This document shows positions 23,161 to 61,467 of a stretch of DNA of 64,000 nt, piece by piece. A program made the translations under genes and the position numbers. Below the pieces are notes generated by a model. That model had not been told where the DNA came from, made no database searches, and was given only the letters and a program-made list of their open reading frames with translations. How positions within the stretch are numbered: the first letter of the stretch is position 1; each line of letters opens with the position of its first letter. Source of the DNA: Psammoneis japonica (lineage: Eukaryota); contig QPGO01000286.1 of NCBI GenBank assembly GCA_008632985.1, positions 1-64,000 on the forward strand, given 5' to 3'.

Positions 23161-26111
23161 TGTGCAGATGCGGTGTGCCGTGTGGATGTGGAGTGATGTT
23201 TTTCGTCTGCAGCAAAACACCACTGGTTCGACCGCAGCAGGAGGTGGTGCATGCTGTCGCCAATGGAAAATCTCCAACAGAAATTGTCAACGGAAACCAG
23301 CACATCCATGAACATTGATTTGGGCGAACAAAAGGGTTGACAACCGTTGTCAAGATGTGTGCAAAATTGTGCAAGAACATGCACCAGGAGAATGATTGAA
23401 GGAAAGAAATGTTCAGCACAACTGCATTTGGGAGACCGGCCGGTCCGGACAGGCCCCGGACCGGACTGGTGACGCAGGGCCCCAAGCAATTTTGTAAAAA
23501 TGATCCAATTGTTTTGCAAGACCTGCACAAACAATTGCAGTCATTTCACCAGGCTCAGCATGTGACGTCAAGATTGCATGCCATGCAGTGCCGGACATCG
23601 GGATTCCATCTCAGGATTCCCTTTCAAGTGGCTTCGCTGCAACCACACGCGAGAAGAACAACCACAACAACAACAACAACAGCACCGCCGTCATTGTTGG
23701 CATTGTCAGCCTGTTCTGCATTGCATCACAATGACCAGTCCAAAATGCCGAGAGACCCTGTTGTCAATTCCACAGCCACTCTTGGGATGGCTGCAATGGG
23801 GGCTTCCAATGAGCTCACCTCTGACGCTTTTGCTCAGCAGTCAAGATTGGTGCGTGACATGCACAATGACCTGGGCGACAAAGACGACAACACAAAGAAA
23901 GCAATGAAAGTGCAAGTTTTGGTCAAACCCTTGTCACACCTGTGTTTTGATGATGTGTTTTGACCAAAGTTTTTGTCTGACCCTCTCCCCTGTTTTAATT
24001 AAATTGTTCTGGCAGACATGAGAGCCAGTTCTGCACAATGTGCGACCACAAGCATGCCTCATTGGGAGACACCAAGCATTTGATTGATGAGCAAACAGCC
24101 TTCATTTGCCTGTTCCATTTTGCCTTTTGCCCACAAAAGAAGAGGGGCAGGGCAAAGAAGGGAGAGACCAGGCCAATCTTTGATGCTGAGCTCTTTGAAA
24201 GGGTGACAGCCAGCAATCCCTTGACTGATGCAGTGGACGTTCCAAACAAGACTGAATTGCTTGACCAGATGGAAGCTGGTGTCAGTGAACCCAACAAGCT
24301 GTGCCAGTGGGATGTTGTCAACCAGGCTTGTGCATCCCTCAGACGACTCTTTGTTCATCAGCTTGAAACATGTGGCAGAGATCCTGCTGTGTTGCTTTGT
24401 TGTGAAAATTCCAGCCGCATCAGACATCTTAAGAGCCTTGTCAAGTCCAGGAAAGCACAAGAGAAATGGAAACGGATGGATGAGAAGGTGAGTCTTAATT
24501 AAAATGTGTTTCACATTTTTGTTTAATTAAAACCGCTGACCTGTGCTGTGTTGTCCACCTCAAACCCGGTCAGGTTTCTGGCGACGTGTCGCCCTGCCTG
24601 GCCCATGAGCATTTCCCAGAGTTGGAGGAGGGTTGCTGGGAACATTCTTCTGGGACATTGCTGAATGGAACAGTTGCTCTGCGCAACCGTTTCTTCATGC
24701 TGCACACAAAGCAAGCCATTTCCTGTGGGGAGTCTCCCCTCAAGGCTGACCTGAGTGATCTTTGCAGCTTCAGTTGTCAGGCAAGGAAGGAGGAACAGGC
24801 CTGCCTGATGCTCATCATGCAGATGTTCACAGGCAAAACCAGTGGTGAAAGCATGCTGTTTGGCCATGTCGTGCGACACAGAGATGTGAGAATGGACTCC
24901 ATTGGTGCATTGGGTCTTTATCTGCTTGGTGCGCATCCAACCATGTCTGATTGTTTTGGCTTTACAAAACGTTTTAATTGAACAAACTGTTGCTGGAATT
25001 CTTTTTGAATGCAGGATGCTTTGAGATCAGCAAGGGATGGGAGAAGATTGATCTCAAACGGAAGGGAACGTGGTGGAACATCAAGCTCCTTGTGGACGTT
25101 CAGAAGGCTGGCACATCCTCTGGAGACAGTGCCGATTCACCCAACACACAGCACATGTCTCCGTCATCTTACACTGCTTGGTTTGGTCATTTGAAAGAAC
25201 GGCTTGACCTGCTCATCAACTGCAGTTTGCACTTTGGACGTGTTGGAGGCACAATTGAGTTAGAGTTGGAGGAGCTGGAGTCTTGTCTCATCAAAGCTCT
25301 TGGAAATTGGGACCCAAGTGTGTTTGATGCTCGCTGCTCCACAAAGCTGCCCTTGAAGGTGAGTCGTTGCACTTGCGGTGTGGCCTGTTTCACTTTTAAT
25401 TAAAACTCACATTTTGTTTTAATTGAACAATTCCAGGCGATGAGGGTTGCAGCTGGCTTCGCAAAGGAGCCTGGAACCTGCTTTGTTTCACGTGCCCTCT
25501 GTCAGCCTTCAGATGAATTGCAGAAGGAGATCTTTCCTTGGCTGGAAGGCATGGCGGAAGGAGTGACTTGCCGGGAGCACCCCGCAGCACATGCCTTTGT
25601 TGGACTCTTGAAACAGTTGCATGTTGTCATCCTCCAAGATGCGGCGGCGTTGATGCTGCTGGGCCACACCCACGCCTTGTTTGAGCTTCCTGTTTTCATG
25701 TCAGCTGGATTTTTGTTGTTTGAGGATCAAATGAAGGTTTGCTTGGAAAAGGCACCCCCTTGCCCTGATGCTGGAGAGATCCATGGGGTGTTGGAGCAGA
25801 TTCAAAACTTGCACCAGGACAACCAACGCAGCCACCAGGAGCTGTTGTCCGCAGTCAATGGGTCCATTGACTGCAACAGAACGATGATGAACAATTTTGC
25901 CTTTGCCATTAGAAATTCGCTGCGTGCAGCTGGAAATGAGTTCAACAATTTGACCCTGGAGCGGTCTCCTCCACTGGCTGGGCAGCCATCACGCCAGCCA
26001 GCAATTGGTGAGTGCTGCATGTCATGCTGTTTTAATCAAACGTCATTTTAAATGTTGTTTTGGTTGAACATTGTTCTGACCAATTTGCGTGTTTAATTGA
26101 AATCATTTGCA

Positions 26112-29100
26112 CAACCAGGGAAGACAACAGCCTGCGCTCAACAATTGCATTTACTGTGCCAACAGGGCCGCAACTCTGTCGACCCCCGCAAAGCCTTCTG
26201 TGCGGACCTGTCGCGTGTGCTCCAAGAGTTTCGTGCGGAGAACAACCGAGAAGTGATCTTGTTCGGTGACTTCAATGCGGGCTTCTCTTTGGATGCAGAC
26301 TCCCTGGCTGCACTTGCCCAATGCTTCAATTTGTCCGACATCCTGTTCCAAATCCTTGGTGTTTCCGAATTTTCCACATGTGCGAGAGGCTCCAAAAGAC
26401 TGGACCATGTTCTGGCATCTCCAGGAGCTTTGTCTGCGGCTCGCCTGGGCGGGTGTGAGGCATTTGGATGCCGTGTCATGTCAGATCATCGGGCACATTT
26501 TTTGGACTTCGACACGATGGAACTGTTCAGGAACCCGACCGTCGATCTACCTGAAGCTTCCTTTCACGACATTCAGGCTTCTTCCAAACCCCAGGTCACC
26601 TCGTGTTTAACCTCCGCTGGACCCATGCTTGACAGCTGTTCTGTCTTGGAACGATCCACCCAGCTGATCGAGTCTGACACTCCGAATCACGAACTGGCAG
26701 AACGCTTGGACCGAGATCTTCTTCAGTTCTCCCTGGCGTCCGCGAAAAAGTGTCGATCCCAGACGCGTTCCAGCTCTAGGTGGGACCTCGTACTGCTGAA
26801 CTGTGACATCGATAGTTTTTTGGATCGCACCGCATGTCGCGCACGTAGAAAGGTGCGTGACTTTTCTGAAATTTTGTGTCATTTTGTGGCACACTTATTT
26901 ATTGAGCGATCCGTCCAACAACTTTTGACATTTTTTTCTTCTACGCCATTTGTAAATGTCTTAAGAATGGCGTAGGGCAGGCGGATTACCGAAAACGTCA
27001 AGCGGCAATGGTCATAATTGTACCACAAACTTGGTCATTTATTTGATGTTGAAGACAAAAATGTCCATTAATTAAATTCTCGTAATACGGAGCTCGTACG
27101 TAGAATTCTACGGGCCAAATGTCACAAAAAGTCCCACCTAGGACTGGAACCCGTCCCCACCGTGAACCCGACTGGTCGGTCAAGTTGGCAGATCTCCGTT
27201 ACAGAGTGTACATCTTCACTCGTGTTCTTTCCATGATGAGGAACCGTCTTGATCATGTCGCCCAGATCCAGCTGGTGCGTTCAAAGCTGATGGGCTCATT
27301 CTCCATTCCAACGACATTTCATGAATGTCAGGTTGCCTTGCGCAAGGCACAGGCTGAATGCAAGGCAGTTGCAAAGGAGAGCATCGAGCAACGTGAACGG
27401 GAACTGGCAGAGAAGATTGCCAAATTGGACCCAGACGGTGCAGCGGCTGCCCGTAAATCGGCAAAAATTATTCGGAACATGCAGAAGTCAGAAGAAACCG
27501 CCCGGTTGTTTTGCAAGATCAACGTGTGCAAGGCAAAACATGACACAGGAGTCAACAGCGCACAGGTCCCTCGCAACCCGGCCACCAATCCTAAAGAGTG
27601 CGAAGATTGGATCACGATCAATGCCCCAGATGACTTTTCAGCAGCATTGTGTTCTCGGAATCAGCGACACTTTGGACAGGCACATGGCGCACCTCCTGCA
27701 GTTCCTCCCCTGTCCGTGGATCTCGGATGCGAAGGTGACACAGTCATGGCTGACTTGATCTTAGATGGAGAACACGACACATCCTCTCTCAACAACGCTG
27801 CTGCTCTCTTCGTTCAACATCTTCAACGACGTTCACCAGTGTCGGTGTCTAACTTCCTGACTGAATCGGATCTCAAAGGGAAACTCAAGGTGTGGAAGGA
27901 AACTGCATCCACTTCTGTGTTCTTGGGCCTTCATTTGGGACACTGGAAAGCAATGCACGCAGCTCATTCTCATTCAGGCTCCACTGCCCCCGAAGGTGAT
28001 CTCACGTCTGAGTGTCAGCATTTGAATGAAGTTCAACAGCGGCTGATTCGGACTCGCTTGAATTTGTTAAACTGTGCTCTACGTTGGGGGCACTCGCTCA
28101 ACAGGTGGAAGGACATTGTCAACATCATGATTTTCAAAGAGCCAGGAAACAACAAGATGCATCGTCTCCGAGTTGTCCACGTCTGTGAGGCAGATTTCCA
28201 ATTGATGTCCAGTGTGAAATGGAGAGTCTTGGCACAGAACATGGAACACCGTCGTCTGTACAATCCAGGCATTTGCGGGACGCGTCCCTTTTTGAATGCT
28301 CACACACCGGTGCACCTTGAGGAACTTGTGCTTGAGATCAGTGGAGCATCCCAGAAAACTGCGATTCACAGTGATGGAGATTGTACCTCATGCCATGATT
28401 GCAACATTCCTGCTTTAACAGCACTCGAAAGCCGCAGCAACGGCATGCCCAAATCAGCAACTCAGACAGCAAACGCCACTTTACATGATGCAAGACACTG
28501 GTCAAAGACAGTTTGTGGCCTCTCAACATCATCTTGCTCCCATTCGGACGAGTTCCCTGTCTACGGCACTGGCCAGGGCAGCGGAAATTCACCCTTTTAC
28601 TGGAATCAAATTTGCAACAGCTTGTTTTGGCCATTTGACAGTCAAGCTCATGGGGCCTGCTTTGAAACTCCCGACAGGACAGTTTCAATGCGGATGCATG
28701 CCAGAGGGTGTGTTGACGATGCTTCGAATCAAGTGAACGCCTTTTGTGCTGATCCCCAACCAGATGCGCTGGACCTTGTCCCTCGAATGTAGCAAGATGA
28801 TCAGCTGTGGTGCGACCTCCTGGACGCGGCAGGACATGAGCTGGAGCTTCCAAAGTGCTCGTTTCATGCTGTTGAATGGCATTTTACTGCTGATGGAGAG
28901 CCACACCTTCGGGCGTACAATGACGAGATTGACATTGAAATCCACTCCGCCGACAGATCCACCAAAAGATCCAGCACCCAACTTTCCGCTTGTTGCTCCT
29001 CCCACAAGACACTGGGCCATTGCAAATCTCCTGCAGGCACTCAGAAGACTCAGTGCAAAGCACTGAAAACAAAAAGTGACGACATTTCTCTGTTTCTCTG

Positions 29101-31956
29101 GTTGTGTCCATTGGACCGTCATGAGGCATGGACTCACTGCGTGCCACCTGGCCTCCACCACGTGCATCCTTCCGAGTGCACATTTTCAACCGAAGGAATC
29201 ACTTGAGATTCAACGCAAGGCCATGCGAACTACATTTGCCAAGTGCGGCCACAACCGCAACACCAAGCGGGATGTTTCATTCGGACCGCATGCCTTGGGA
29301 GGTGGAGGATTCCGTTCTCTTGACGTGGAGCAGGGTGTCGCTCAATGTTTGCAGTTCCTTCGACACTGGTGCGGAAATGGGCAACCTCATGCTTTGTCCC
29401 ACATTGCAGTGGCGTGGACACAGTTCCAGCTTGGAACAGGGTCAAGTTTTCTGCAAGATGTAAACACAAAACTCCCACACTCCGAGCCCAAATGGTTCAT
29501 GTCAATGAGATCCTTTCTTGCCCGCACAGACGCTCACTTCGAACTGGACTTCACTGGCGTCCTTCCCACACAACGAGAGAATGATCAATGCATCATGGAT
29601 GTGGTGCTGGACTCTAATCTTTTCTTGGAAAAAGAGATCAGGTGGGTGAATTGTTGCAGGCTGTTCCTGCGGGCACTTGCTGTTTCAGACGTCACTCTTC
29701 CCGATGGTCGACATTTGGATGAACTCAAGTTGAAAGGGCAAACTTCCCTTGTGAGCAGCATGTCGTCACTCAATCCAGTCGAACAGGCATGCCCGTCTAC
29801 TCGCACCTGGAAACAATGGAACCGGGCGATGGCTCTGTTGTGCAACGAAGGTGCCTCCATCCTCTGAACCCCTTCAGGTCAATGGACCGTTCCTGCCTCC
29901 AAGATGCGCATGCTTCATCCGGCCTGTTACGAGCGCTCCAAAGAGTTTTTGTGTGTCCGCTCTGATGCGGGTTATCAAGTGTTTCCAGTCAAGGATGCGT
30001 GCGCTGAAACACTTCAGCAGTTGGAAACAGTTCCCGATCTATCCCCATTGGCATCACCTGTCATGGTGGACATGACTCTAGACGGCAGATGGCGAGCAAG
30101 ATCCATTGTGTCCCCAGTGAAGATGCCTCCAACAATTCCCGTCCTCGGTGACTTCTGCAAATGGCTGCGGTCTTTGTCATTGTGGGAGTCAACCCTGTTC
30201 AGTGTGCTTCACATGCATGCATCGGCATTTGAAATGGCGGAGTCCCTTGGGCGCTTCCGTGCAGAAGCAGGGAGTGATGGTTCCGTGTTGCATTTTAATG
30301 GCACCTTTGGCTGGATGCTAGCGGCCAACGGAGTGATTCTGGTGGATTGTGCAGGACCGGGCTTTGGATTCCGACTGTCCTCGTGTCGTGCAGAAGCACA
30401 CGGATTTTTGTCAGTTCTCCACTTTCTTGTTCGAGTGATGGACTTTTGCAACTGTTGTTTTTCACACAGTGTGGTTGCCCATTGTGACAATTCCTCTCTG
30501 GTGCGCAACGTTGCCAACTTTCATTCTCCCCCACCACTTCCTTTGGATGCTGATGATTCACAACGACAACAAGATTTTCATTGTCGGAATCACATCGCTG
30601 ACACGTTGGCGCCGGATTGGGACGTTGTCCACGAGATCTTTGCTTCACTAACAAGTTTGGAGGCCCAATGCAACGGCCATCTTGAAAGCAATGTCGTCAA
30701 CATGAAGTGGATTAAAAGTCATCAGGATGACAACACTCCGTTCGAGTCCCTCCCGTTCCCAGCAAAATTGAATGTTAGAGCCGATGGGTTGGCAGGTTTG
30801 TTTCAGGGTCAATGCACTGGAGACACCTCAATGGCTCCCCAAATGCCCCATTGTCATGCACCACTGAATGTCCAGTCGGCGTTGGTGAACTCGAAATTTA
30901 AATCAGTTCTCCGTTGCAAAGCTTCCAGCCCAGCTCTGATCCAACATGTGCAGGAGAAGTGCGGATGGTCTGACCCAGTGTGCGAATCTATCGATTGGAA
31001 AGTTCATTCCAAACTGATGTCTCGCAACATCCGACGAAAGGTGAGCACCATGAAATTGGTTCAGGATCTGCTGCCGACGAACAAGATTGTCCACAGATGC
31101 AATCCCACACGCCCCGACTGCTGCATGCACTGCCAACATCCCTTCGAAGACAGGGATCACATTCTGTGTTGTGCCCACAATGCATCATGGTGGCACACGT
31201 TCCTCCAAGGATTGCGGAAGAAATGTGACGACACACACACTTCCCTGTCTACACAAGACCTGTTGTTGCATGCCTTGGAAGGTTGGTTCAATGAGGAATT
31301 GCCCCATTCTACCCACGTCCATCACAGTGTCACAGAGCTGTTTCAATCTCAAGACGACATTGGTTGGCGCCACATTTTCAGTGGGCGTTTCTCCTGTCTG
31401 TGGAATGAGGCACAAACGTCACACTTGGAGTCTTCCGGCTTGTGTTGCTCTCCATCCGATAAAGACAAAAGATTAGACTGGGCGGCAACTGTTGGCAGAC
31501 ATGTGTGGTCACAATGGTGGGACTTGTGGGACTCCCATGATGATGCAGCACACGGACACAATTCAGAGACGCGAAAGTCTTCGCAACGACAGGACGCAGA
31601 GGCGGAGGTTAAAGAGATCCACTCTGGGGCAGATGAGCACTTGGCCCGGGAACAAGCAGAGTTGTTTACTTTGGCGGATGAACATCTCACCCATTCCACC
31701 CACAGACTCCGAAACTGGCTCGCCATGGCAAAACCAATGTTCAAGTCGAGCATTTGAGAGGCCCGGCGTCTGGCTGTCAGAGGCACGTGCACCATCGCAA
31801 GCTGCTTTGGCGCGGCATCACCAGAGGGTGATGCCGATCTTGACCAATTGTTGTGTGCTCCTGCTGCACCCAGTGCACTGGGAGTGTGGGTTGGCTTGTT
31901 GCTGGAGTTGCAGGGTGGAAGCGCAGCAGCACTTAAAATCAGAATTTGGGTTTTGT
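26112..31956 (+). mobile_element. 5'-truncated non-LTR retrotransposon ORF2 (APE, RT, RNase H, Zn finger; Ambal-like architecture), disrupted
   Basis: GDFN..RLDHVL..SDHRA (APE), GTGQGSGNSP and GCVDD (RT), SDGS..RAE..HCDN..WIKSHQDD..NVRAD (RNase H). 15-bp TSD TT(G/A)AAATCATTTGCA at 26097-26111 and 31957-31971. Confidence 0.9.
26762..27155 (-). mobile_element. MITE family A, copy 3 (394 bp), inside the LINE
   Basis: TSD CCCA at 26758-26761 and 27156-27159. Removing it restores the in-frame LINE sequence KKCRSHREPDW. Confidence 0.95.
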
Positions 31957-32546
31957 TTAAAATCATTTGCAGCCACAGGCATGGTGCCGGCAGCAGGTGC
32001 ACAGTCTCCCAGCACACAGTCTCCCAGTTCCGGTGTGATTGGCTTTCAACCCCCCAAGTCAAAGGACACAGATTTGGTTCAGATGTTTGACTTCTTTGAG
32101 GGAATTGCTCCTCCTTTCACTTCTGGCAATGGAGTCAGGCATTTGGAGGAGGACACATCGTGGCGTTTGGCGTGGGAGGAGAAGGACAAAAGGGCCCTTT
32201 GTCATTGGAAGCAGCTGATGGACATTGTGGACAAAGTGCTGGTTGAGAACTCAGCACACCCTCAAGTTCCAGTCATTGCCAAGTTGAATGCTTTTTGTGT
32301 CAAAGATTGCAACAAGGCATTGACAACTGCTTTGAAGAAGTTCCCTGAACAACAATGGCACTTTGCCACTCCAGCTGGCAACAGCACAAATCAAGGGGAA
32401 CTGGCCAATGTTTAGAAGTCAATGTGTGTGTTGAGATTTTCTTGAGAGGCTGGTGATGGAACGACAGAGTGCATGAAAGATGATCACATTTGCTTTCTAC
32501 GTTGGTGCCTCTTCTTGCACTTTAAACAAAACCCTTTCGCAGCATT

Positions 32547-33778
32547 TTAAATGAAACCATCCACTGAATCAATTGAAACAGCGCCACTCCAATGAACACA
32601 TTTGAACTCGATGCCAGTGCCATTTAGAATGTCCACCACTTTGACACAGATTTTGCCATCTGGCTTGCCTTGCCCATTCCAAATGTTGTCATTGAGAACG
32701 TTGTGTTTGGCATGAGTGAACCATGTGGCACATTGCGAGGCAACACCACCTGCAGAGTTTTTCTTTGCAACGAACAACTTACAGACCTTGTCAAATTTGT
32801 CACGGTCCTCCTGAGGGACTTGGAAACCCTTGGGTGGGGGGTGCTTCTGATGCGCTGCGATGTGCGCAAACAAGCCCCTCACATTCTTTAGAATGTTGGG
32901 CAGTGCATTGCGGTTTTTCTTCACCTTGCCACCTTCCTCCCACGTGGTCTTGGGCCACTCAATGCTGTCCAGCTTTCTGAAACCAGCAATTGGATCTTTC
33001 TTGGGGGGGCATGTTGAAGGTGCTTGCAGCAGCAGTGGTGGCAGCATTTTTGCCGCCCTTGCCCTTGCCAGCCTTGGCACTGCTTGCAGCAGCAGCAGCA
33101 GCAGCGGCGGCATTTTTGCCGCCCTTGCCCTTGCCAGCCTTGGCGCTGCTTGCAGCAGCAGCAGCAGTGGTGGCAGCATTTTTGCCACCCTTGCCCTTGC
33201 CAGCCTTGGCACTGCTTGCAGCAGCAGCAGTGGCAGTGGCAGTGTTTTTGCTGCCCTTGCCCTTGCCAGCAGCCTTGGCACTGCTTGCAGCAGCAGCAGT
33301 GGCAGTGTTTTTGCCGCCCTTGCCCTTGCCAGCCTTGGCACTGCTTGCAGCAGCAGCAGCAGCAGTGGCAGCATTTTTGCCACCCTTGCCCTTGCCAGCC
33401 TTGGCAGCACCCTCCTTGGCCTTGAGGCACGCAGCATTGCTGGCACTCTTCCTTGTGGGCTCAACGGCAGCATTGGCAGGGGCGGCCTTCCTCTGTGCAC
33501 GCAGAGAGAAAAAGGTTTAAATTAAAAAAAAGCTTTGTTTAAAAAAGGTTGCCGGGCATTTTGTTTGGAACAGGTCACCGCGCGTGTGTCACCGCGTGAC
33601 ACAAGCAAGACAGGAAACAGACCGGTCCAATTGAGATGGACACACACACAAACAGACGTGCCTTGCCATCCGACTTGTTGCTGCCATCAGGAGCAGCATC
33701 CGTCATTGTGGAGTCCCTTGGTGCTTCTTCACTGCTCTCTTTTTCTTTTTGACGGGCAGTCGCCATGGCTGATGCCAT
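32547..33778 (-). pseudogene. Two-exon gene convergent with the Crypton YR, encoding Lys/Gly/Ala repeats and an unknown C-terminal domain
   Basis: Exon 33778-33662 joins exon 33492 onward in phase 0 (donor GCACGT, acceptor CAG), giving RKAAP..TRKSA..(AKAGKG)x6. A +1 slip in the G7 run (33003-33009) separates the C-terminal PKKDPIAGF... frame. Confidence 0.6.
33020..33410. repeat. Six imperfect ~60-69-bp tandem units with variable GCA tracts
   Basis: ttttgcc(g/a)cccttgcccttgccagccttggc(a/g)ctgcttgcagcagc repeated. Confidence 0.9.
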
Positions 33779-38184: not shown

Positions 38185-38429
38185 TGTCAGAAAATGAAGA
38201 TGACTGGGTGGAAGAAAACAACAACTCCTCACTGCTGTCTAAATAGCAGATGAGTCTCCGTGCAGAGACCGTTGCAGGAGCCGAAAGACTGGTGTCGTGA
38301 CATCGGCACTACTGTCATTCTTCTTGTGAGCTCTGTGGCTCGAAAGCAAACTACACATCGCGCGACGCGCGGAACTAAGAGCACACACAATCATGTGTGA
38401 TAAACTAAAATCTTGTTCAAATCCTGTCA
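38185..38429 (-). mobile_element. Copia LTR copy 3 (245 bp), in the 5'-LTR position
   Basis: TGACAGG...TTTTCTGACA, followed by a candidate PBS (gatTGGCGGCC), a leader and gag. Confidence 0.9.
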
Positions 38430-38449
38430 CCCCCTTGCTAGCTTGAGGG

Positions 38450-50474: not shown

Positions 50475-50673
50475 GCTCACCGTGCAAACAACACGACAAT
50501 GGCCAAAATGCCGTTCGTTCTCGAAAACTGACAGGGGCAGCCTCCAACTTTTTTCACAGCATGTTGCATTTGATGTGATCAACAATCTCATGAAGAAAGT
50601 TAGAGGCCGCCACACCCACATTGCGTTCAATGAACGGCATTTCGGCCATTGTCGTGTTGTTTGCACGGTGAGC
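50475..50673. repeat. 42-bp inverted repeat with a 115-bp spacer
   Basis: 50475-50516 and 50632-50673 are reverse complements with one CG/CA mismatch. Confidence 0.85.
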
Positions 50674-51132
50674 TCAGCATTCGCTCTCCAGCCTTTTGAA
50701 CGTTTTTCCACAAATTGCACGCATTTGCGAAAAACACTGTCTCATTTTAGCCGTTTTTCGTTTGAAATTTCTAAAATTCACCCCAAAACAAGGGGGTTCC
50801 CAGCCTCAATGGAATCTCCTGCAGAAGTGCATGACCGAGCATGCGGTGCGTGAGCAGATGATGAGCCTCGGGTGTGAAGAACCCATGTTGAATGGCTTTG
50901 TGTTGATTTTAAGAACATCATTTGTCAAGCGATCGAAACGCAGCAACTTTTTGTGCAACAGTCCTTCCAATCTGATGTGTGGCTTTAATGCGATCATTCA
51001 TGACGTGTTGCCCGCAGGGGTGGACAGGCACATGCACACCGCAGCAACTCGACCATCCCCTGTCTGAAATGTCTCCATCCAACGCAACGCATCGCATGCA
51101 ACAACTGCTCCATCCCCTGTCTCAGAGCCCAA

Positions 51133-51500
51133 GGAACCCCCGCGAGAAAGTTTGTAGCCCCAAGGAATGCAAGCACGAGAAGTTTGTAAAGCGTCGGGAA
51201 ACCCCGCGAGAAAGTTTGCAGCCCCCCAGGAAAGCAAGCGCAAGAAGTTTGTAGAGCGTCAAGAACCCCCACAAGAAAGTTTCTAGCCCCCCAGGAACGC
51301 AAGCGCGAGAAGTTTGTAGAGCGTCAGGAAGCCCCGAGAGAAGTTTGTAGCCCCCCAGGAATGCAAGCGCGACAAGTTTGTAGAGCGTCAGGAACCCCCG
51401 TGAGAAAGTTTGCAGCCCCCCAGGAACGCAAGCGCGAGAAGTTTGTACAGCAGAACGTCAGGAACCCCAGCGAGAAAGTTTGTAACCTCAAAGGACCCCA
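51133..51500. repeat. Minisatellite, ~64-bp unit, about 6 copies
   Basis: ggaaccccgcgagaaagtttgtagcccccaggaatgcaagcgcgagaagtttgtagagcgtca repeated head to tail. Confidence 0.9.
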
Positions 51501-54025
51501 AAGAGAAAGTTGCAATTAGCACTGCAGAGCTGAATGTTGCACATGGGATTCAACGGATGTGACGCAGGTGTGCATGTGTCCTGTTAAAAAATCGATTAAA
51601 AATAGATAAACCGGATCTGAAAATCTTGTGTAAAAACGAGAATGACCCTCACCGAATTTTTAACGCGAAAAACGACACGGCCATGGCGATAAAAGCCGCT
51701 CGCGTTGCTCCCACACTGTTCCATGCTACAAAACCAAGGCATGAATCGACCCGTCTTGTTGATCAGACATTGAAATACAACAACCTGGATCATCCACAAC
51801 AAACTTGGTGCTCAAATCGAGTGCGCACTCTTGACACCAAAAATGACGCCCTGCAGAGACCCACACAAATTCTGCACAAAAATGAAATCACCAATCAACA
51901 ACCCTGTTACAAACGGCAACTGGCAACGCCACACATGCCACCTCAGCAATCCACCAACACATCACGAGGTGTGTCAGACAATGAAGGACATGCCCACATC
52001 AATGAAAGTGCCACACCACACAAATGGCGACAACAGTGAGCGGGTCATTGTCGATGATGCATGTTTGTGCGACTCCGATGGCCACGGATTGAGAATTTCA
52101 CGCTGTGGGGGTAAAAGCGAAGACACACAGGCAGACGAAAAATGCATGACCTTTGGTCATGCATGTCTGCTTCTACTCACACAAACACACATGTGCGTGA
52201 TGAGTCTGGCGGTCCTGACCGTCAACAGAAATCTTGCAGTCTCACTCTCTTTTGCGAGTGACTCTGAAATCTAGCCACTGTCTGGTAGAGCTGCCAGCAG
52301 AGAGCAGTGCAGCTACGACACTTCTGCCTCAAAGCAGCTGGCAGCTTCCACTCTAGAGAGTGGAGAGCAGTGACCATTCTCCACTCTCTGCTCTCTGCTG
52401 GCAAGAGCAGCCAGGGAGCAGAGCTCTGCGCCTCTCCACTGGAGCAGAGAGCCAATCATGTTGGAGAGGCTCCAATGTTCCTTTGCAGGTGACACTTGGA
52501 CTCGGCTCATAAAATTCATTCCACGTGCTTTTTGTCCCACCACAAGAGTGTTTCTGAGTCAAAGTTGACTGTTCCTTTTTTTTCTCAGACCAATTTCTGT
52601 CCTGAGACAAGGTGAGCTTGACTGAAGTTGCTTGATTTGTTGTCAGAGTCAACGAGACACACAACAAAGTGGCACAGCCTGAAATGGAAAGCAAGATGCA
52701 ACTGGCATGTCTAAACAGCATCAAGAGGGTGCAAGTGTGGGGTCATGAGACATGGTGCCTCTGTTCCAAACTCAATTTGTGTTGGCCTCTGGTTCATGTG
52801 TGCTTGCATCATGTGCAAAATGGTGTTTCCCGAGTGCGCATTTTGATCATCCGACCCAAGTGGGCACTTTGGTTGGTGTGCAAATTTGTTGACAAAGTTG
52901 ATTTTGCTTCCAAAAATTTGGCAAAAAACAATGTGGTTGGTCTGCAACAAATTGGTCAACCAAAGTGTTTTGGATTGACCAAAATGCCTGATTTGGTCAA
53001 CCAAAATGCACACTCGGGAAACACCAACAAACCAGGTGTGAAGCCAGCAATGTCTGAGCCTGTGAAGCCACAGCAGTGGCAACACACAGCACACTGAGGG
53101 GGGCCATGTCCAGAGCTGCATGGAACTTCTTCAGATGAAACAGCACGGGGTTTGACCAGCCCACCATTGTGCTGTTGGTCAGTCGTTCAACCCCGCATCC
53201 TTGGAGTGCTGCACATCTGTGTGGGGGTTGGCACCACACAGCACATGTGGAACATGTGCCAACTGCTGCTGCTTGTTCTCTCACAGCACTCACAGCATTT
53301 TTGTGCATTGTCCTCATCATCTTAACTGGGGGTTGTCATTTGAGTTTGGGTGTAAAAACTGATGGTGCAGCTGCACCCCCTGACATGAGCTTGGTTTTTC
53401 CCACATGTGGCACAAACATGCAGCCACTCAGCATCAATGTGAGAGTGCTGTTGTGAAATGAAGAGCAGTTTGTGACTTTGGCTGACACCTGAGACATGAA
53501 ATCTTATGACAACATTGCCAAAATGGCAAAACCTTTGGTCATTTGTGCAAGTGCAGAGGGATGCCCAAATTTGGAGCTGCTCAAATCACATGAACCCGGG
53601 CTTTGGTTTTGAGGATCTGTGATGAACAACATCATGGACAACCTCTGGCTGCAGCAGAAGCAATGTCAATCGGGGTTTTTTGCCAGATTGTGAGTTGATT
53701 CAAACTGGTTGAAAAGGAAAAGGCGGCTCACTGCGCTGTTGAAGCAGCACATGACTGGAAAGAAAGAGATTGCCAAAACATGAGGGGCCCTCAAAACAGA
53801 CTCTTTCAAAGAACGAGCACTTGCACTCACCAAAGCGGAGCTTTGCCTGCTCTTTGAAAGGTTTTCTGATGGCAGCAGGAGCCCTTGGAGGAACGCAAAT
53901 GGCAAAAAAAAAGCTTCGCTGGCTTCAAAACAAACACATGAAGAGTCATGAGCTCAGCACCATGAGCTGCTTTCCAAAAATCACATTCTTGAGCACCTGC
54001 ACACCCCAACTCCACAGTGAAAGGA

Positions 54026-54244
54026 TCGCAGCCAAGACTCTAAGCCAAGCAAGGAGAGGACCTCCTTGACTGGACCGAGAGTCACCGCGCGAATGCAGGA
54101 GCGAAATGGGTTGAAGGACGGACGACGGACGAGACGAGCGGAAACGAGGCCAGCCCAAGGGATCCCCTCATTGTCTGGCAGGATGGGAGACACCATGGCA
54201 CTGTCGGAGGCGTCTCCCAGGAGATGCCAACGATGAAAATCGAA
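54026..54244 (+). repeat. Split direct repeat A1
   Basis: 219 bp, near-identical to 61985-62203. Confidence 0.95.
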
Positions 54245-55170
54245 TGGTTTTTCTCTCTCTCCTGTCAGTCAATGCTGAAAATCCCTTGCGTGGTCTGCTT
54301 GCGCAGCCGGGAGTGTCTCGTGCATTGGTGCTGTTTGTTGCCACGCCATTTCGGCGCTGTCCTGTGGATGCACCTCCCCAATTTTTTTCACCACTGGTGC
54401 TGACTACAGTCACGCCATCTTGGCGCCATGTCACGTGGGCATTGCTCTAAATCCTGACTGGGTCCGCTTGTCAGCGTGGACCGCTTCGGCGGCCGAGGAT
54501 TGCCTCGCACTCTGGCCTGTTTGCCACACCTTTCAACGGTGCTTTCTCACAAGGAGCACATCCTCATGTGGACGGTCTCAGCACCATTAAAAGTCCCGCA
54601 TGGGCAAACAGTGGCATGGCTTTTCAATCCGCCTGCCGCTTTTTCCTGAACGCCCATGTTGGGCCCCTTTTCTTTTGCCGCTCTGCGGTTCATGGTCATT
54701 GCCTTTCCTCTCGGCGTGTCCAATTTTTCCCCTCTCCCAGGGACGTGGTGTGTTTAGACTTGTGCACCAGCACACTGCAGTGTCTGAATTGCCAGCTCTA
54801 TCTGGTCGACATCAATTGTGTGCACATGTGTACACTCCCGTGAGGGTTTAGTCAAAACGAAATTTGCCACCACGTTTCGGGGGTTTTTCGTCTTCTCGCG
54901 AAATGCGCGCCATCACGATGATGAATGGTGATGGAAACTGACCCGTCACATGGGAATGAAACTTGGATTTCTTTCTTATCTCCATTCATTGGACAAGTGT
55001 GGGAATCGTGAAGGGTTGCGTTCGCGGAACCGACACGGTGTCAGCCAACGCTTGTCCTTCTCGAGCAATTTCCACACGCTGGTGTCCTTCACTTTCCGGT
55101 GAGATTGCTCTCACTTTTCCTTTTTGCGATCGGACAAGCCTTTGGTTTTCTGCTGCTCTGTTGTTCCACC

Positions 55171-57449
55171 ATGAACCACGCCCACGCTGCTGCCATCAAC
55201 CGCGGTGAGCTCTCCGCTGCAAAGCGGCACTCCACCGCTTTGCCCTCCTCCACAGGTGCGATCAAGTCTGTCTCAACTGCTGTCCACCGTGACACCCAGA
55301 AGGAGCTGCGAGACCATGTCTTCACGACCTCTGACCTTTTCTACGCGGTCTGCAATCGCAAGATTGCGGTTGTGGCGAAACCTCGCCCCAGGCAGCATGC
55401 TGATGGGAATCTAAAGTGGATCGGGAGCCTCTCGGATACGATCGGCGAGGTCATCCCAATGTTTGGCAGTTGGACTCGTTTCCAAGGCCATGCAACCACT
55501 CTAGTCCCCCAGGGCACTGTGGATGCTCATCACCTGCCCAAGTGCGAACTCAGCCCTGACGAGATTGACGGTCCCGTTGGCAATGACGGCAACAACGTGC
55601 CGGCGTCGATGGGTCGTCTCCATTTTGGGAATCCTTCCGGACCGGCAGAGCGTCCCTCCATCGTCGCGCTCCCGATGTTCCTGCCAATCCCAATGGGTGT
55701 CACCCTTCCTGTTGACTTTGACCCAGCAGATCCCCCAGCATCCCTTGCCACTAACTTTCCGCTCGGAGTGGTTTGGGCTCAGGGTGTGTCCTGGTTGCTT
55801 CAGCACAACGCGTCTGTCTCTGTCACAGAAGGCGGCCCTGTGTTTGAGCAGAACGGTTTTGCCATTGTCGATGAGTTTGCAGGCCTTGAGATCCACAATC
55901 TCGACGACAATGATGCACAGATGCTCCAACCTCTGACGGATTGGTGTGCACCAGTCAAGACCACAATGGACGCCTTTGCAGATGAGACCTGGAGGCAACT
56001 CGGTGGAGAGCCCGCGCAGACACCAGCTCCCGCCGCCCCAGCCCAAGGCACCAACGGACAGGTTCCGAACCACACCATCAACATCCCGCACCAGGACTCG
56101 AAGAAGGAGTCAGACCAGAAGCTGAGGGCGCACGACATTGGCCACCGCTGGTCACTCTGTGCGTTCCGAGCGACTGCTGGCACAGGTCCGGAGGACCCGC
56201 CCATGATCATCGTGGGCGAGCTTACGGACCAAGCGGTCAAGATTCTGCAGGACACGTCGGCTGCCAATGCAAACCGTGACCTTGCGGATCTTGTTAAGAT
56301 GGCTGTTGTTGCATCAGCCCGTGGTGACAGTGGTCTAGACGCTGGGGTCGATTGCAAGTGCACCACAGTCAACAAGGCCACACGGACTGTTTCCGCGGCT
56401 TTAATGTGGTTGCGGAGCCCCCGCAGTGTGGCCAGGCTTCGGACCGTACGAAGCTGTCTGTCTTTCCCTTTCTTCCCCCGAAGACTGCATCATCTTCATT
56501 TGCTGGTCTCAAGGACGAAGGGAGGACACTCCATCGGGCACTTGCCAACGGCTCCGACTGCAAGATCCCCGATGACGCAAAGGCGAGTGACCTTTGCATC
56601 CAAGGAAGGATGGACACTGCCAGCGATCTGTGGTCAGCACTTTGCAACTTTCGCTGTGTCCTTGGATGTTGGATCAAGGACTTCGACAATGCGGAGCTGT
56701 GGAAGTCCCTGGATGCGTGCGCAAAGGTTCTCTGGTCGCACCCGGGCCATGCGTGGCTCAAGAATCTCGAGGACCCGAAACCAGTCGTCGCTGGCATCCT
56801 AGATGATTTCCAGACTGTTGTCAAAGTCTACTTTGAGATCGGAGACTCTCCCTTGTACCGTCAGGCGGTAGAAACCGAGCGTCCGCTGAGCTGCCAGACA
56901 GCAAAGGACGCTCGCACTCTGGTCAAGTCCCTCATTGTGGACCTCAACACCGCGATCACGCGGGGCAAGCCTCTGGCCTTTGCGGAGGCATCTACATTGG
57001 CCCTTGTCCCCCCAGGCAACTCTGTGTTTCCCTCTGCTGCTAGCGGAACGAAGGACAATGCGACCAAGTCTGGTCAACCTCCGAATGAGAAGCCGCGTAC
57101 AGGGGAAACAGATGAGAAAACCGCCGAGCTCTGCAAAGCGATGGGTGTGCTCAATTTTTCGGGCACGAAGCGGCTCCCGACCAGCCCCGTTTTCTACAAG
57201 AAGCGAGGATCAGATCAGGAGGAACGTGTCTGCATGTACTTTTGCACTGAGGGGCACTTCTGCAAGTTCCCCAACTGCCCGAAGCCCCACCCATCGTCTC
57301 TCTCCAAGATTCCGAGTGAAAAGAGGGATGCCTTTTGCCAATTTGTCAAAGACACCCCTGGACTCGATTTTGTCCCTGGCAAGGGCCCAGACGGTGCATC
57401 CCAATCAGGTTCAAAATTTTCTAGTCTATGCACTGTACCCTGTTGCTAA
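55171..57449 (+). pseudogene. gag-like ORF1 of the YR retrotransposon with C-terminal CCCH finger; frameshift near 56355
   Basis: Two overlapping protein-like ORFs; CMYFCTEGHFCKFPNCPKPH. Confidence 0.7.
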
Positions 57450-57529
57450 TGCAGTGTTGTCCAAAACTGTTTTGTTTTTACTCTTGATTAGTCTACGTTA
57501 TCCCGGATAGGTCCGTTCGTCTCATCGCA

Positions 57530-60418
57530 ATGGATGTCGACAACGACAGCGATCAGGAGTTCGAGGTGATCGATGCAGAAAAAGAAGAGACCGGAATGAG
57601 TGTCGATGATGCCATCCCAGCTATTGACGCTGCACTTGCCACGTCGGTGAAAGAGCCGCACCCGAGCCTACGCCGAGGTGCGGTCACGCCGCAGCCTCCC
57701 GTCGACGAGAATGAGCTGATTGAGCTATTCCCTACCTTCTCCATGGTCCATAAGAAGAAAGGGACCGATCTGATTCCTACAATCAATAACGGCTTCAACA
57801 AGAAGGCACGTGAGCACTTTGCCAATGCGGAACTGTCACCGGGCGTGCGTGCTAAACTGGACCAAAAATTCGGTAAGGAAAGCTTGAATCAATGTTTCTT
57901 GTTGGAAGCGTGTTTGCGTCATGTGTTGTCACCGCTGTTGAAATCCGGATACCTTTCGCCACCGGTTGATTGTGTGAGTGACTTGTCTGCCCAAATCGCC
58001 TTTGGGGGCGATTGGGAGAACTTCGGAGCGGCCATCCCGGAAGCAGCCGAGTTCATGAGTCTGGTCCAGGAACATGGCGACATCGACTTTAATCCTCTCC
58101 AAGGCTACCCCAAGGGATGGCAAAAGGAGACAACGGTCAATGCGGATAGAGCCGCGATGACAACTGCCGCGTTGTTGCATTTTGATGGCGACCCAGCAAA
58201 CCTGGTTCGCTGGGTTGGCGGACCGCACGTCAGTGAACACAGATGCACGCAGAAAATGCTCCGCTTTCTACAAGGTCGTGTGCCCGACGAGACAATGGCA
58301 CACGTTCGCCGCATCTTCCAAGACGGGGCGCCAGCGAAATGCAACACTGCTTTCTCTGAAGCAAACTTCCAAGCAGCTCTCAAGTGCGGAAACCACAAGA
58401 CCGTTGACGCTGCACCTGACAAAACATTGGCGGCAGTCGTCAAGGACAATCGCAAGGGTTTCACGCTGCTTTTTGACCAGCGTCTGGTGCCATGCTTGCT
58501 GAACTGCCATCTCACTCCTCAGGGGATGGTGGACCTTGACAAGAAATGCAAGAGTCCGTGCCCCATCTTCGACAGTGCGATGCGAGCGACTCCAGACGGT
58601 GTGGCAATCAACGACACGATGGACCTCAAGCACGAACCGCCGATCACGTTCCCATCAGCGGAAATGGACTTTATGGTGTGGACATGGAACATGAGAATGT
58701 CCTGCCCACATGAGGAGATCTGCCTCGGCGATGATGATGTGAGTGGCGCTTTCCGCAACATGAAGCACCACCCGAACCTCGTCGGGATGCATGCCAGCGT
58801 CCAGTGTGGACCAGGCGTCCCACAGACGGGTTGCACCTTCGGCGACAAGACCAACCCAAGCAACTGGGACGCCATTGCCAACGCAAGACAACATCTTGCT
58901 CAACACTTCTGGCTGGTGCCCAACATGGTGGAGCTCGCCCAGCAGTGTCTCCCATCGACATCATTCGCGGAACCTCCAACAGCTGAAGAGGTGGCGTCAT
59001 TCTGTCCTGCGGAAGCAGACGCTGTCAATCCGGGCGTGTTCCTAGACGGCAACCGTCTCCCACCAACATGCAAGCACCACATCGACGACAACTTCTACGG
59101 AGACACACGTGACTTGATGAAAAGAACAGTCGCTGCGAGCGCCCTGGCCGTGTGCATTGTGTTGGGCTTCCCACGCGATGAAACTCCGGATTTCCCAAGC
59201 AAAGAGAAACTGGACACACTGTGCTCGCATCTCCGACGAGCCCTGGGAAGGCACTTCAACTCAAGAGCACTGTCGGTGGGAATGCTCCCATACAAACGAG
59301 AACAGTTCCTTGAAACTTTGCAAGAATGGTGTGACAAACAACGGCACACACTGTTGGATGCAGCGAACCTGAATGGTCAATGTGAATTCCATGCGCGGTG
59401 TTGTCCATGGGCTCGGCCGAATTTTTTTGCACTCCAGAATTCCGTGCGGCGGGCTGTGGTCGTCCAATGCGCCGTTGTCAAACGAATCATGGAGCGACAA
59501 AATTTCAAATTAAATTTTGAAACTCAACTGCCGAGTCATCTCAGGAATGGGCTGCCGAGCTCACTTGCGCGCACACAAGCCCAGCTCCTCTGTGAGCTGA
59601 AGATCGAGATCCCGATGACATCCGATGTCATTGATGTGATGAAGGATGCAGCACCCTACATCGAATCGACGCCAGACCCATGGACAGCACCGATTGGATG
59701 TGTCATGCCGCGAGTGCCACATTGCCAAGCAATTGGAGACGCCAGTGACGCAGGCGGAGGAGCCCACTGCGCGGAACTCAAATTTTGGTTCGCATTTCTT
59801 TGGGGACCAAAAATGGCGAAAGGGCTCCGGCTGAGGAAGGCCTCCGACCCAGAGTGTGTCCATGTCAACACAGCAGAGTTTGTTGTCATCACACTCAAGC
59901 TGGCAGCTGCAATTGTCCGCATGGAGACTGTGACCCGAGAACGGGCCCATGAGTTCTTCCGGAACGGCGTCGTCCCGCTGCACCTGGTTGTCAGGAGTCG
60001 TTCAGACAACATGGTGTCGGTCAACCGGTCCAACAAAGCAACGTCAAAGTCGCCACAGGGGCAACGATTTGTTTGGGTCTTCTGCAAATTGCTCCGCCGT
60101 GCTCGTGCCAACTTCAACGGTGATCACATCTTTGGCGACGAAAATTTTGTTGCCGACGACATCTCACGACCTTCTGTTTTTGCCTTGATCTTGCATCGCA
60201 CCCATTCTGAACAGCTGTTTCGGAAGTGTCCCTTTCTGAAGACCTGGGACTGTTTCCAGCCGAGTCAAGAGCTGCTGCAGCTCCTCTCCTCACAGCTGTC
60301 TACCAAGCACAGAATGGCACCCCAGATCCCAAGCGACTTGGGACAGCTCGTTCCCGCAGAATCCATTTCCTCTGCTTTTACAAGAGTGCGAAGTGGCACC
60401 TGGGAGATCCGGAAATGA
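57530..60418 (+). CDS. Reverse transcriptase/RNase H (open frame, but YIDD reads HIDD)
   Basis: DDVSGAFR, TFG..NPSNW, HIDD; RNase H GDAS, HVNTAEF, SDN, HIFGDENFVADDISR. Confidence 0.9.
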   Translation: MDVDNDSDQEFEVIDAEKEETGMSVDDAIPAIDAALATSVKEPHPSLRRGAVTPQPPVDENELIELFPTFSMVHKKKGTDLIPTINNGFNKKAREHFANAELSPGVRAKLDQKFGKESLNQCFLLEACLRHVLSPLLKSGYLSPPVDCVSDLSAQIAFGGDWENFGAAIPEAAEFMSLVQEHGDIDFNPLQGYPKGWQKETTVNADRAAMTTAALLHFDGDPANLVRWVGGPHVSEHRCTQKMLRFLQGRVPDETMAHVRRIFQDGAPAKCNTAFSEANFQAALKCGNHKTVDAAPDKTLAAVVKDNRKGFTLLFDQRLVPCLLNCHLTPQGMVDLDKKCKSPCPIFDSAMRATPDGVAINDTMDLKHEPPITFPSAEMDFMVWTWNMRMSCPHEEICLGDDDVSGAFRNMKHHPNLVGMHASVQCGPGVPQTGCTFGDKTNPSNWDAIANARQHLAQHFWLVPNMVELAQQCLPSTSFAEPPTAEEVASFCPAEADAVNPGVFLDGNRLPPTCKHHIDDNFYGDTRDLMKRTVAASALAVCIVLGFPRDETPDFPSKEKLDTLCSHLRRALGRHFNSRALSVGMLPYKREQFLETLQEWCDKQRHTLLDAANLNGQCEFHARCCPWARPNFFALQNSVRRAVVVQCAVVKRIMERQNFKLNFETQLPSHLRNGLPSSLARTQAQLLCELKIEIPMTSDVIDVMKDAAPYIESTPDPWTAPIGCVMPRVPHCQAIGDASDAGGGAHCAELKFWFAFLWGPKMAKGLRLRKASDPECVHVNTAEFVVITLKLAAAIVRMETVTRERAHEFFRNGVVPLHLVVRSRSDNMVSVNRSNKATSKSPQGQRFVWVFCKLLRRARANFNGDHIFGDENFVADDISRPSVFALILHRTHSEQLFRKCPFLKTWDCFQPSQELLQLLSSQLSTKHRMAPQIPSDLGQLVPAESISSAFTRVRSGTWEIRK

Positions 60419-61467
60419 CTGTGATTGGCAAGGACCCAAAGTGCTGCCAACTGGTGCTAGCTGTGCATGCATTGCATCTAGCTAGCGGCTCCACTCTCTA
60501 CTGCAAGAACATCTCCTCAGGTGCCATCAAGGAATGCGTCCACGACGTGTCAACGTTCGTGTCTCTGTTTGGTTCCACGCATCGGGACGTCCGTAAAGAC
60601 AACAGCGTGGACACCAAGATGGGGTGGATCCTCAGGAGAGCATTTGATGAACTCCAACGGTGCGAGAAAGTCCCGGAACGGCGCGAGTCATGCACGTTGC
60701 TGATGCAGCAACGAGCGACGTTGACAGCAGACAGCATGCGAGAAACTGACCCGGACGCGATCGAGGTGGTCCTCGCTGACTGGTTTGAGATTGGGCCAAT
60801 GGCCGGCTTGCGAAGCATCGAATGGGCTCAATCCAATGAGCACTCAGACCTGGAGAACCCAAGGCTGAACATCTTTGAGGAGACCTGCGTGTTCTGCCTC
60901 GACGACGTCCGCTGCGAGACAAAAGACAAGCACCGACACACCGGAGCGGATTGTCTCATCCCCAAGCAAGAGGATGTCGAAAGCATGTGCATCATGTTCC
61001 GAGCTCAGAAGAACATGCACAATGGCGAGGAACGCCAGTTTGCTGTGAATCTCGATGGCAAGCACGACTTGGCAAAGCAGATGCTTCGCGTCATCCGACG
61101 TTTCGTGCAGGTCCGTGGCAAGGACGACAAGATCTGCCCCCTTGCTGTCTACTTCGATCCAAAGGAGGACAAGTGCCGTCTCGTCACGTCCAAGAAAATC
61201 AAGACCCACATGCATGGAATTGCCGCGGAAGTTTGCCACCTCGACCCGGTGAAAGATGAGAAAGCTCTCAGCAAATGGTCGGCTCACTCCCTCCATGTTG
61301 GAGCCTGTAATGTCCTTCACGAGATGAATTTTAGTGGCGAGCAGATTAAATGGCTGCTCAGATGGCGATCTGATGCCTTTGTGGCTTGTCTCCGCAACTG
61401 CCTGGGTCTTTCCCAGGCCCATTGTCGAGCTCTCGACAAGGCGGCACCCATGCCGTTTTTCGATTAA
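60226..61467 (+). CDS. Tyrosine recombinase overlapping the pol 3' end (open frame, catalytic residues altered)
   Basis: GLRSIEW, HSLHVGA (from HSLR), LRWRSDAFVACLRN (expected catalytic Tyr reads Cys). Confidence 0.9.
   Translation: MSLSEDLGLFPAESRAAAAPLLTAVYQAQNGTPDPKRLGTARSRRIHFLCFYKSAKWHLGDPEMTVIGKDPKCCQLVLAVHALHLASGSTLYCKNISSGAIKECVHDVSTFVSLFGSTHRDVRKDNSVDTKMGWILRRAFDELQRCEKVPERRESCTLLMQQRATLTADSMRETDPDAIEVVLADWFEIGPMAGLRSIEWAQSNEHSDLENPRLNIFEETCVFCLDDVRCETKDKHRHTGADCLIPKQEDVESMCIMFRAQKNMHNGEERQFAVNLDGKHDLAKQMLRVIRRFVQVRGKDDKICPLAVYFDPKEDKCRLVTSKKIKTHMHGIAAEVCHLDPVKDEKALSKWSAHSLHVGACNVLHEMNFSGEQIKWLLRWRSDAFVACLRNCLGLSQAHCRALDKAAPMPFFD

Follow-up and report, generated by a model that had tools for sequence, protein, structure and literature searches.

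Mobile elements of the window and their tyrosines

We examined a 64,000-nucleotide stretch of the Psammoneis japonica genome (GCA_008632985.1, contig QPGO01000286.1, positions 1-64,000, forward strand), hereafter the window, in which three mobile elements lie on the forward strand: the remnant of a Crypton-type tyrosine-recombinase transposon (23999-26048), the remnant of a long interspersed nuclear element (LINE; 26097-28789) and a tyrosine-recombinase retroelement (54026-62475). The proteins of these elements have lost most of their conserved tyrosines, mainly to cysteine and histidine, in DNA that is strongly depleted in the dinucleotide TpA. The original prediction held that TA to TG or CA changes inactivate the elements by erasing tyrosines rather than by creating stop codons, and it named four codons as lost catalytic or conserved tyrosines. 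All four codons lie at the coordinates given for them (25335, 28709, 59078 and 61387). Two of the four are true catalytic Tyr-to-Cys changes; the observation is thereby partly confirmed and its interpretation partly supported.

The Crypton remnant was recognized by an NDC10_II match (E 4.1e-10), and frame mapping divides it into pieces in three frames (23999-24499, 24499-24978, 24978-25400 and 25404-26048), with a TAA stop at 25401-25403 that possibly lies inside an intron. In the homolog alignment of the piece 24978-25400, the codon TGC (Cys) at 25335-25337 occupies the catalytic-tyrosine column, within the motif HxGR..GNW..YS.K.P. Tyrosine is found in this column in 101 of 107 Crypton homologs (the others being two gaps, two His, one Cys and one Phe), and the lost catalytic tyrosine predicted here is borne out. 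Upstream, the conserved arginine of the R.ES motif is replaced by cysteine (TGT, 24724-24726), a change of the CpG to TpG type. The R-H-R-Y tetrad of this copy is therefore not intact, its first Arg and its Tyr both being Cys, with the HFGR motif retained.

The retroelement was delimited by its repeats and enzyme open reading frames (ORFs). Direct terminal repeats of 219 nt, 98.2% identical, lie at 54026-54244 and 61985-62203, and a further repeat pair (92.4%) at 61740-61984 and 62227-62475. Between the terminal repeats, a stop-free ORF of 976 codons (57488-60415), whose structure model matches reverse transcriptases (RTs), encodes an RT-RNase H protein, and it is overlapped, as in the relatives, by a stop-free tyrosine-recombinase ORF of 418 codons (60211-61464). 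The recombinase was aligned with 23 homologs translated from related metagenome loci, one locus (L052) having been left out because of a stop in its translation. The codon TGT (Cys) at 61387-61389 stands in the catalytic-tyrosine column of the motif LRWRS.AF..Y, where all 23 homologs have tyrosine, and this second catalytic site was also rightly called as lost. The arginine of the HSLRVG motif, likewise present in 23 of 23 homologs, is histidine in the window (CAT, 61294-61296; a CpG to CpA type change), and both the HxxR arginine and the nucleophile tyrosine are consequently absent (His and Cys). Conserved arginines of the two recombinases have become Cys or His by CpG-type decay at one further codon, 24865-24867.

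The R-H-R-Y tetrad is described as catalytically important, with its tyrosine contacting DNA directly (PMC3212892). Since the tetrad matters for catalysis, the Crypton and retroelement recombinases, judged by their residues at these positions, should both be inactive. Tyrosine loss as a route to inactivation holds for both of them; as the sole route it does not, because CpG decay has also changed a catalytic arginine in each (24724 and 61294).

The two remaining codons fared differently. The RT-RNase H ORF contains the sequence HIDD (CAC ATC GAC GAC, 59078-59089), whose histidine had been read as a mutated tyrosine. We aligned the protein with 45 of the 52 relatives found at E ≤ 0.001 in the protein collection, and His531 (CAC 59078) and the two aspartates after the next residue proved invariant in 46 of 46 aligned sequences (45 homologs and the window), with the consensus MHVDD; neither Tyr nor Phe precedes the DD of this motif C. 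Among the related metagenome loci, 76 of 79 have a TA observed-to-expected ratio (o/e) of 0.44-0.86, so that relatives from DNA with ordinary TA content all carry histidine, and the claim of a lost tyrosine at 59078 falls on the very ground that its authors had named. The family is unusual in other respects. Pfam gave no family match, and no RVT match, for the window ORF or for two intact relatives, and a search of the family profile against the sequences of solved structures (PDB) returned no meaningful match. A structure model built on the alignment (mean predicted local distance difference test score, pLDDT, 83.1; predicted template modelling score, pTM, 0.82) gave 16 Foldseek matches at E ≤ 0.001, and all matches listed there are reverse transcriptases: the best was 8r0s_A (1.6e-06), and those of cauliflower mosaic virus, foamy virus, Ty3 and Moloney murine leukemia virus were matched at E 1.6e-06 to 1e-04. 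In the model, H531-I-D-D sits in a beta-hairpin, between strands 529-531 and 534-540. On the strength of these matches and of this hairpin, the modelled ORF 57488-60415 is an RT with a naturally HxDD motif C. The RT family as a whole (57488-60415 and the related loci L001-L079) was detectable as such by fold only.

The LINE remnant consists of an endonuclease ORF with an Exo_endo_phos domain (26097-26972) and an RT ORF (27104-28789); these lie in different frames and do not form one continuous ORF, as opposed to a relative (P0061) that has endonuclease and RT in a single protein. The RT ORF has 27 relatives, two of them named Fragilaria crotonensis. Its motif C reads CVDD, and the homolog alignment places the TGT (Cys) at 28709-28711 in a column with 17 Phe, one Tyr and nine gaps among the 27 homologs. 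With FVDD as the family motif, a Tyr-to-Cys change at 28709 is unlikely and this codon is probably not a lost tyrosine; the prediction at this site comes close to failing in the same manner as that at the HIDD.

Beyond the four named codons, the wider claim that TA to TG or CA changes turn tyrosine codons into Cys or His in the element proteins is well supported. We defined a conserved column as one with the same residue in at least 80% of homologs. Across the four element proteins, tyrosine is kept in only 4 of 23 conserved-tyrosine columns (2/9 in the RT-RNase H ORF, 0/4 in the retroelement recombinase, 1/8 in the LINE RT and 1/2 in the Crypton piece), compared with 417 kept among the 510 columns conserved for other residues (Fisher p = 1.5e-10). 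The lost positions now hold 12 Cys, 5 His, 1 Trp and 1 Phe, that is, Cys or His in 17 of 19, and all four surviving codons are TAC. Overall composition is shifted in the same direction: tyrosine makes up 0.61-0.96% of the window element proteins versus 3.0-4.0% of their relatives, and cysteine 3.3-4.5% versus 1.6-2.0%.

Depletion of TpA along the window

Over the whole window the dinucleotide o/e is 0.22 for TA, 1.47 for CA, 1.54 for TG and 0.66 for CG. We profiled TA in 500-bp bins and called a bin depleted when its TA o/e was below 0.3, which is the case across 47 of the 64 kb; in the same bins TA and CA/TG are correlated at -0.77. The confinement of the depletion to domains was assessed within this one 64-kb window. 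Depleted runs reach a TA o/e of 0.02-0.14, and the neighboring ordinary patches, which contain host ORFs, have 0.36-0.72. The largest depleted domain spans 10501-26500 (TA o/e 0.09, CG o/e 0.44), and further runs below 0.3 lie at 1-4000, 4501-6000, 27501-38000, 42001-43500, 47001-48000, 48501-51000, 52001-57000 and 58001-63000. The edges are sharp. The island 42001-43500 (TA o/e 0.02), flanked by 38001-42000 (0.54) and 43501-47000 (0.50), begins with a fall from 0.44 to 0.06 at 42000 and ends with a rise from 0.00 to 0.70 at 43500. The ordinary patches are several kilobases long and exceed the ORFs within them.

Two host genes in these patches serve for comparison. An exon of an EamA-family transporter lies on the reverse strand (40821-41759), and its named relatives are exclusively from diatoms and one bolidophyte (38-62% identity), which indicates that the host is a diatom-like stramenopile. 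A host-like ORF of 480 codons on the forward strand (38404-39843) has ordinary TA counts in its three codon phases (3.3, 3.8 and 5.8 per 100 codons), similar in magnitude to the mean of 19 relatives' recombinase ORFs (3.3, 4.0 and 5.5). In the element ORFs of the window the corresponding counts are 0.2-1.0, 0.5-0.9 and 0.7-1.4, a 4-8 fold reduction. At synonymous (phase 2-3) and between-codon positions the TA o/e is 0.42-0.69 in host ORFs versus 0.08-0.31 in element ORFs. As TA is cut in every codon phase, the depletion points to mutation and not to selection on proteins.

Both strands are affected, given that the TG/CA ratio on the sense strand is 0.99-1.01 in the retroelement and that both Cys and His outcomes occur; in the LINE the ratio is 0.93. 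The depletion is also specific to sequence context. Comparing depleted with ordinary bins, the o/e of TAT is 0.03 versus 0.47, of TAC 0.09 versus 0.60, of TAG 0.10 versus 0.43 and of TAA 0.18 versus 0.46, and among tetranucleotides ATAT (0.01 versus 0.46) has almost vanished, in contrast to TTAA (0.36 versus 0.40). The preference for the 3' neighbor of a lost TA is thus T>C>G>A, and both tyrosine codons, TAT and TAC, are the best target words.

The consequences for reading frames follow from the same words. When all pairs of adjacent sense codons were enumerated, TA to TG or TA to CA made a stop in none of them, so that the original prediction was right in holding that such changes are unable to create stops. 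On both strands of the window we counted 547 TAA and 391 TAG, versus about 2000 of each in shuffled sequences, and 2652 TGA. ORFs of at least 150 amino acids number 89, versus a mean of 4.45 in the shuffles. With TAA and TAG about 4-fold rarer than in shuffles, open frames are cheap in the window. A Pfam search of the 116 ORFs of at least 90 amino acids in all frames of 1-23545 returned a single sub-threshold TPX2 hit and nothing else, and most of these ORFs are likely artefacts of the scarcity of TAA and TAG. Rfam at the gathering threshold and ARAGORN found nothing in the window. The statement that the element frames look intact holds for one of the three elements: the RT-RNase H and recombinase ORFs of the retroelement are open, but the Crypton is broken over three frames with a TAA and the LINE ORFs lie in different frames. 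Splice donors of the form GTA had also been suggested as targets, with GCACGT on the reverse strand (33656-33661, a hexamer match) as a candidate mutated donor. This hexamer occurs 26 times in the window, with 31.1 expected from shuffles, and is not notable in itself.

A few stretches stand out for their composition or structure. Bin 48001-48500 has ordinary TA (0.72) and a CG o/e of 1.16, with fully TA-depleted bins on either side, and lies within a stretch of very high summed depth of related contigs (1358); it may be a repeat that escaped hypermutation or is too young for it. At the other extreme, 52671-54004 is at single-copy depth (62-95), yet TA (0.04-0.05) and CG (about 0.2) are jointly more depleted there than anywhere else; it has the appearance of an ancient repeat decayed past recognition. 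Units of about 66 nt, 87-94% alike, are repeated in tandem at 33026-33406, in a bin with a GC content of 0.62, zero TA and CA/TG at 2.27 of expectation. Finally, a 500-nt stretch at 3600-4101 matches its own reverse complement at 84%, forming a palindrome, and is adjoined by LINE fragments (3405-5308) that are 81-90% like 26760-27163.

Proposed TpA hypermutation and competing explanations

We favor the explanation that regional hypermutation of TpA to TpG or CpA erases tyrosine codons and TAA/TAG stops alike, leaving elements that are dead and ORFs that are open, and we give it a probability of roughly 0.8. In this account, about three quarters of the window would be transposon- or repeat-derived, within the nuclear DNA of a diatom-like stramenopile. 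Context-specific A:T to G:C transitions would turn TpA into TpG or CpA on both strands, with the 3' preference T>C>G>A. Because TAT and TAC are the sole codons for tyrosine as well as the best targets, tyrosine would become Cys (TGY) or His (CAY) wherever a frame is hit; TAA and TAG stops would be removed and none created, so that ORFs may remain open around presumably dead enzymes. CpG decay would proceed in parallel and alter catalytic arginine residues. The signature, its arrangement in domains, the loss specific to tyrosine and the two catalytic Tyr-to-Cys changes are demonstrated by the window itself. Beyond this, the changes were probably made on the DNA in place and by an enzyme, for which an adenine deaminase, as proposed for Bigelowiella natans, is the most plausible candidate, and TpA hypermutation may serve as a genome defence.

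Comparison of repeat copies bears on changes made after insertion. The four differences between the 219-nt terminal repeats of the retroelement (one TA/CA, one CG/TG and one adjacent CA-versus-TG pair) all fall at the two mutable steps, TA and CG. Of the 330 differences between the copies of 11 of the window's 33 detected repeat pairs, 72 are TA to TG or CA or the reverse, and 49 are of the corresponding CG type. Considering that TA amounts to only about 1.4% of dinucleotides, the former class is strongly over-represented. Relative to the contigs of a public sequencing run (X1), the window has 1825 transitions among 2435 differing places.

The same footprint was met outside P. japonica. Among the 79 related metagenome loci, three (L025, L034 and L042) are starved of TA, with an o/e of 0.16-0.29 over the contig; the ordinary TA content of the other 76 shows that TA poverty is not native to the element family. 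Conserved tyrosines are kept there in 0 of 6, 2 of 6 and 1 of 11 cells, respectively, and all remaining cells are Cys or His. The context order is also that of the window (ATAT zero, TTAA 0.67). The process therefore seems to occur in other environmental hosts. Across 34 close relatives we counted 55 departures from conserved tyrosine, including 26 Cys and 20 His. Their departures from conserved arginine are mainly to Gln, stop, Trp, Leu and Cys, which apart from Leu are products of CpG decay, and a stop at a conserved arginine was found in 31 cells of the metagenome relatives. Tyrosine retention and TA o/e across all loci gave a Spearman rho of -0.43, a value confounded by the other residues of distant relatives, and we set it aside.

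Several observations sit uneasily with in-place hypermutation aimed at repeats. Ancestral states were taken from homologs at 25-47% identity and not from a consensus of the genome's own copies, and the EamA gene is a weak control for tyrosine retention, as it offers two conserved tyrosine columns, of which one is kept and one has changed to Phe. The repeat-pair differences also include 116 other transitions and 93 transversions, meaning that TA change is not the sole decay process. Moreover, the terminal repeats of the retroelement are equally poor in TA yet 98.2% identical, which implies that much of the depletion may be older than this insertion or may go back to an RNA or cDNA intermediate. 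From the contigs overlaid on 44000-63999 we considered the best supported 40 of 2457 differing places, a sample too small for a mutation spectrum; of the 11 that fall inside the retroelement, eight have CA or TG in the window against CG elsewhere and only one concerns TA. Summed contig depth did not follow TA depletion across 30 bins (Spearman -0.12, p = 0.52), and the high-depth bin 48002-48668 has ordinary TA.

The competitor that survives best, which we nonetheless regard as unlikely, is editing on an RNA or cDNA intermediate at retrotransposition by an ADAR- or APOBEC-like activity, so that new copies would be dead on arrival. It would account for the TA poverty that the two terminal repeats have in common, with 4 differences in 219 nt, and for the presence of a copy that lacks a working recombinase, one covered by related contigs of a public run at several times the flanking depth. 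However, depletion is no weaker in the Crypton, a DNA transposon, and in the long unclassified domains than in the retroelement, and one or more TA/CA differences date from after the divergence of the terminal repeats. In B. natans, as reported in a recent preprint, the same signature arises in place on single-copy integrated DNA (Mettrop et al., bioRxiv 10.64898/2026.01.13.699255). The strand symmetry of the retroelement also speaks against the intermediate, and strand-biased RNA editing is discounted as the main cause by the near equality of TG and CA.

A second possibility is that TpA is avoided genome-wide and that purifying selection alone keeps TA in host genes, with no targeting of repeats. 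Under-representation of TpA is widespread in eukaryotes, and even the ordinary patches of the window have a TA o/e no higher than 0.36-0.72. We consider this very improbable, in view of the sharp transitions at, for example, 42000 and 43500, of ordinary patches that extend over several kilobases and beyond their ORFs, and of host ORFs that keep their TA even where it is synonymous or falls between codons.

Slightly less probable still is that the recombinases are domesticated host genes without catalysis, in which tyrosine loss is functional. Crypton-derived host genes lacking the catalytic tyrosine, such as the DUF3504 genes, are indeed known (PMC3212892), and the retroelement ORFs are open. 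Against domestication, TA is depleted equally in all codon phases, further columns of conserved Tyr and Arg have been lost, the Crypton is broken over three frames, and the retroelement retains its terminal repeats and is overlaid by divergent related contigs. An artefact of sequencing or assembly, with G or C called in error for a modified base at the TA steps of repeats, can be given no more credit than domestication, and nothing seen here speaks for it. Modified bases are capable of causing systematic base-calling errors, but contigs of run X1, possibly from the same sample as the assembly, reproduce the TA-poor stretches (0 differences over 699 nt at 49163-49861 and 5 over 1907 nt at 52135-54040), and three unrelated metagenome contigs show the same signature and context order.

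Known systems and significance

The window is best filed as the footprint of TpA-specific hypermutation in a diatom-like host. Its closest counterpart is the chlorarachniophyte B. natans. In mutation-accumulation lines of this alga, 231 mutations were reported in integrated giant-virus and virophage regions, of which 230 were A to G or T to C, all at TpA, at a rate of about 6e-7 per site per generation; coding sequences low in TpA showed an excess of RT, endonuclease-RT and DDE domains, and the enzyme was proposed to be an ADAT2-like adenosine deaminase (10.64898/2026.01.13.699255). The two cases share the change of TpA to TpG or CpA on both strands, the confinement to regions of foreign origin, and low TpA together with high CpA and TpG. 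They differ in that the B. natans rate was measured directly in the lines, whereas the window shows the footprint alone; in the host, which is a member of the Rhizaria there and diatom-like here; and in density, the window (47 of 64 kb) being far more densely affected than B. natans (124 clusters in about 95 Mb). When the main text of the preprint was searched by term, tyrosine, stop codons, trinucleotide context and diatoms were all absent from it. The window adds three points to this type of hypermutation: the preference for TAY, the signature of Tyr to Cys or His, and the inflation of ORFs. A search of one literature collection turned up no account of TpA hypermutation in diatoms, nor any of tyrosine erasure as a coding consequence.

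Other systems resemble the window in part. Like fungal repeat-induced point mutation (RIP), the process proposed here consists of dinucleotide-specific, in-place transitions in repeats and mobile DNA that form regional compositional domains. RIP converts C to T, chiefly at CpA; TpA is enriched as a result and numerous stop codons appear (see also PMC3318451). In the window, by contrast, TpA is destroyed, TAA and TAG are about 4-fold under-represented and GC rises. Adenosine deamination by ADAR or ADAT shares with the window the change of A to G and the favored T (U) on the 5' side of the edited base, but it acts on RNA (ADAR) or tRNA (ADAT), whereas in the window a DNA transposon is affected and the changes are strand-symmetric.

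The elements themselves belong to recognizable groups. The Crypton resembles the CryptonS and other Crypton elements described by Kojima and Jurka (2011; PMC3212892) in its NDC10_II-type domain and HxGR..GNW..Y motif, and Cryptons are already known from a diatom according to the same source; the window copy departs from a typical Crypton in the cysteines at the first Arg and the Tyr of its tetrad and in its three frames. The retroelement can be likened to DIRS and Ngaro elements in the order of its ORFs, with RT-RNase H first and the recombinase overlapping its end, and in having terminal repeats together with an internal repeat. It differs from them in an RT family with an invariant motif C histidine (HxDD) that lies outside Pfam and outside the reach of the structure-sequence search.

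For annotation, these results mean that in such DNA the length of an ORF is no sign of function, and that gene models poor in tyrosine and rich in cysteine are best regarded as dead elements. The context order, with ATAT almost gone and TTAA spared, provides a specificity that a candidate deaminase would have to reproduce. We further suggest, tentatively and at somewhat less than even odds, that the process is shared or recurrent across the SAR supergroup (stramenopiles, alveolates and Rhizaria), as a TpA-directed DNA-editing defence, probably acting by adenine deamination, that leaves zombie ORFs behind; the three TA-starved metagenome loci (L025, L034 and L042) suggest that it may be common in nature. 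The sole measured case of mutation at TpA only comes from one 2026 preprint on a chlorarachniophyte. A second, unrelated algal lineage with a far heavier footprint would indicate that such hypermutation is more than a curiosity, and it gives the search for the enzyme an organism to start from.

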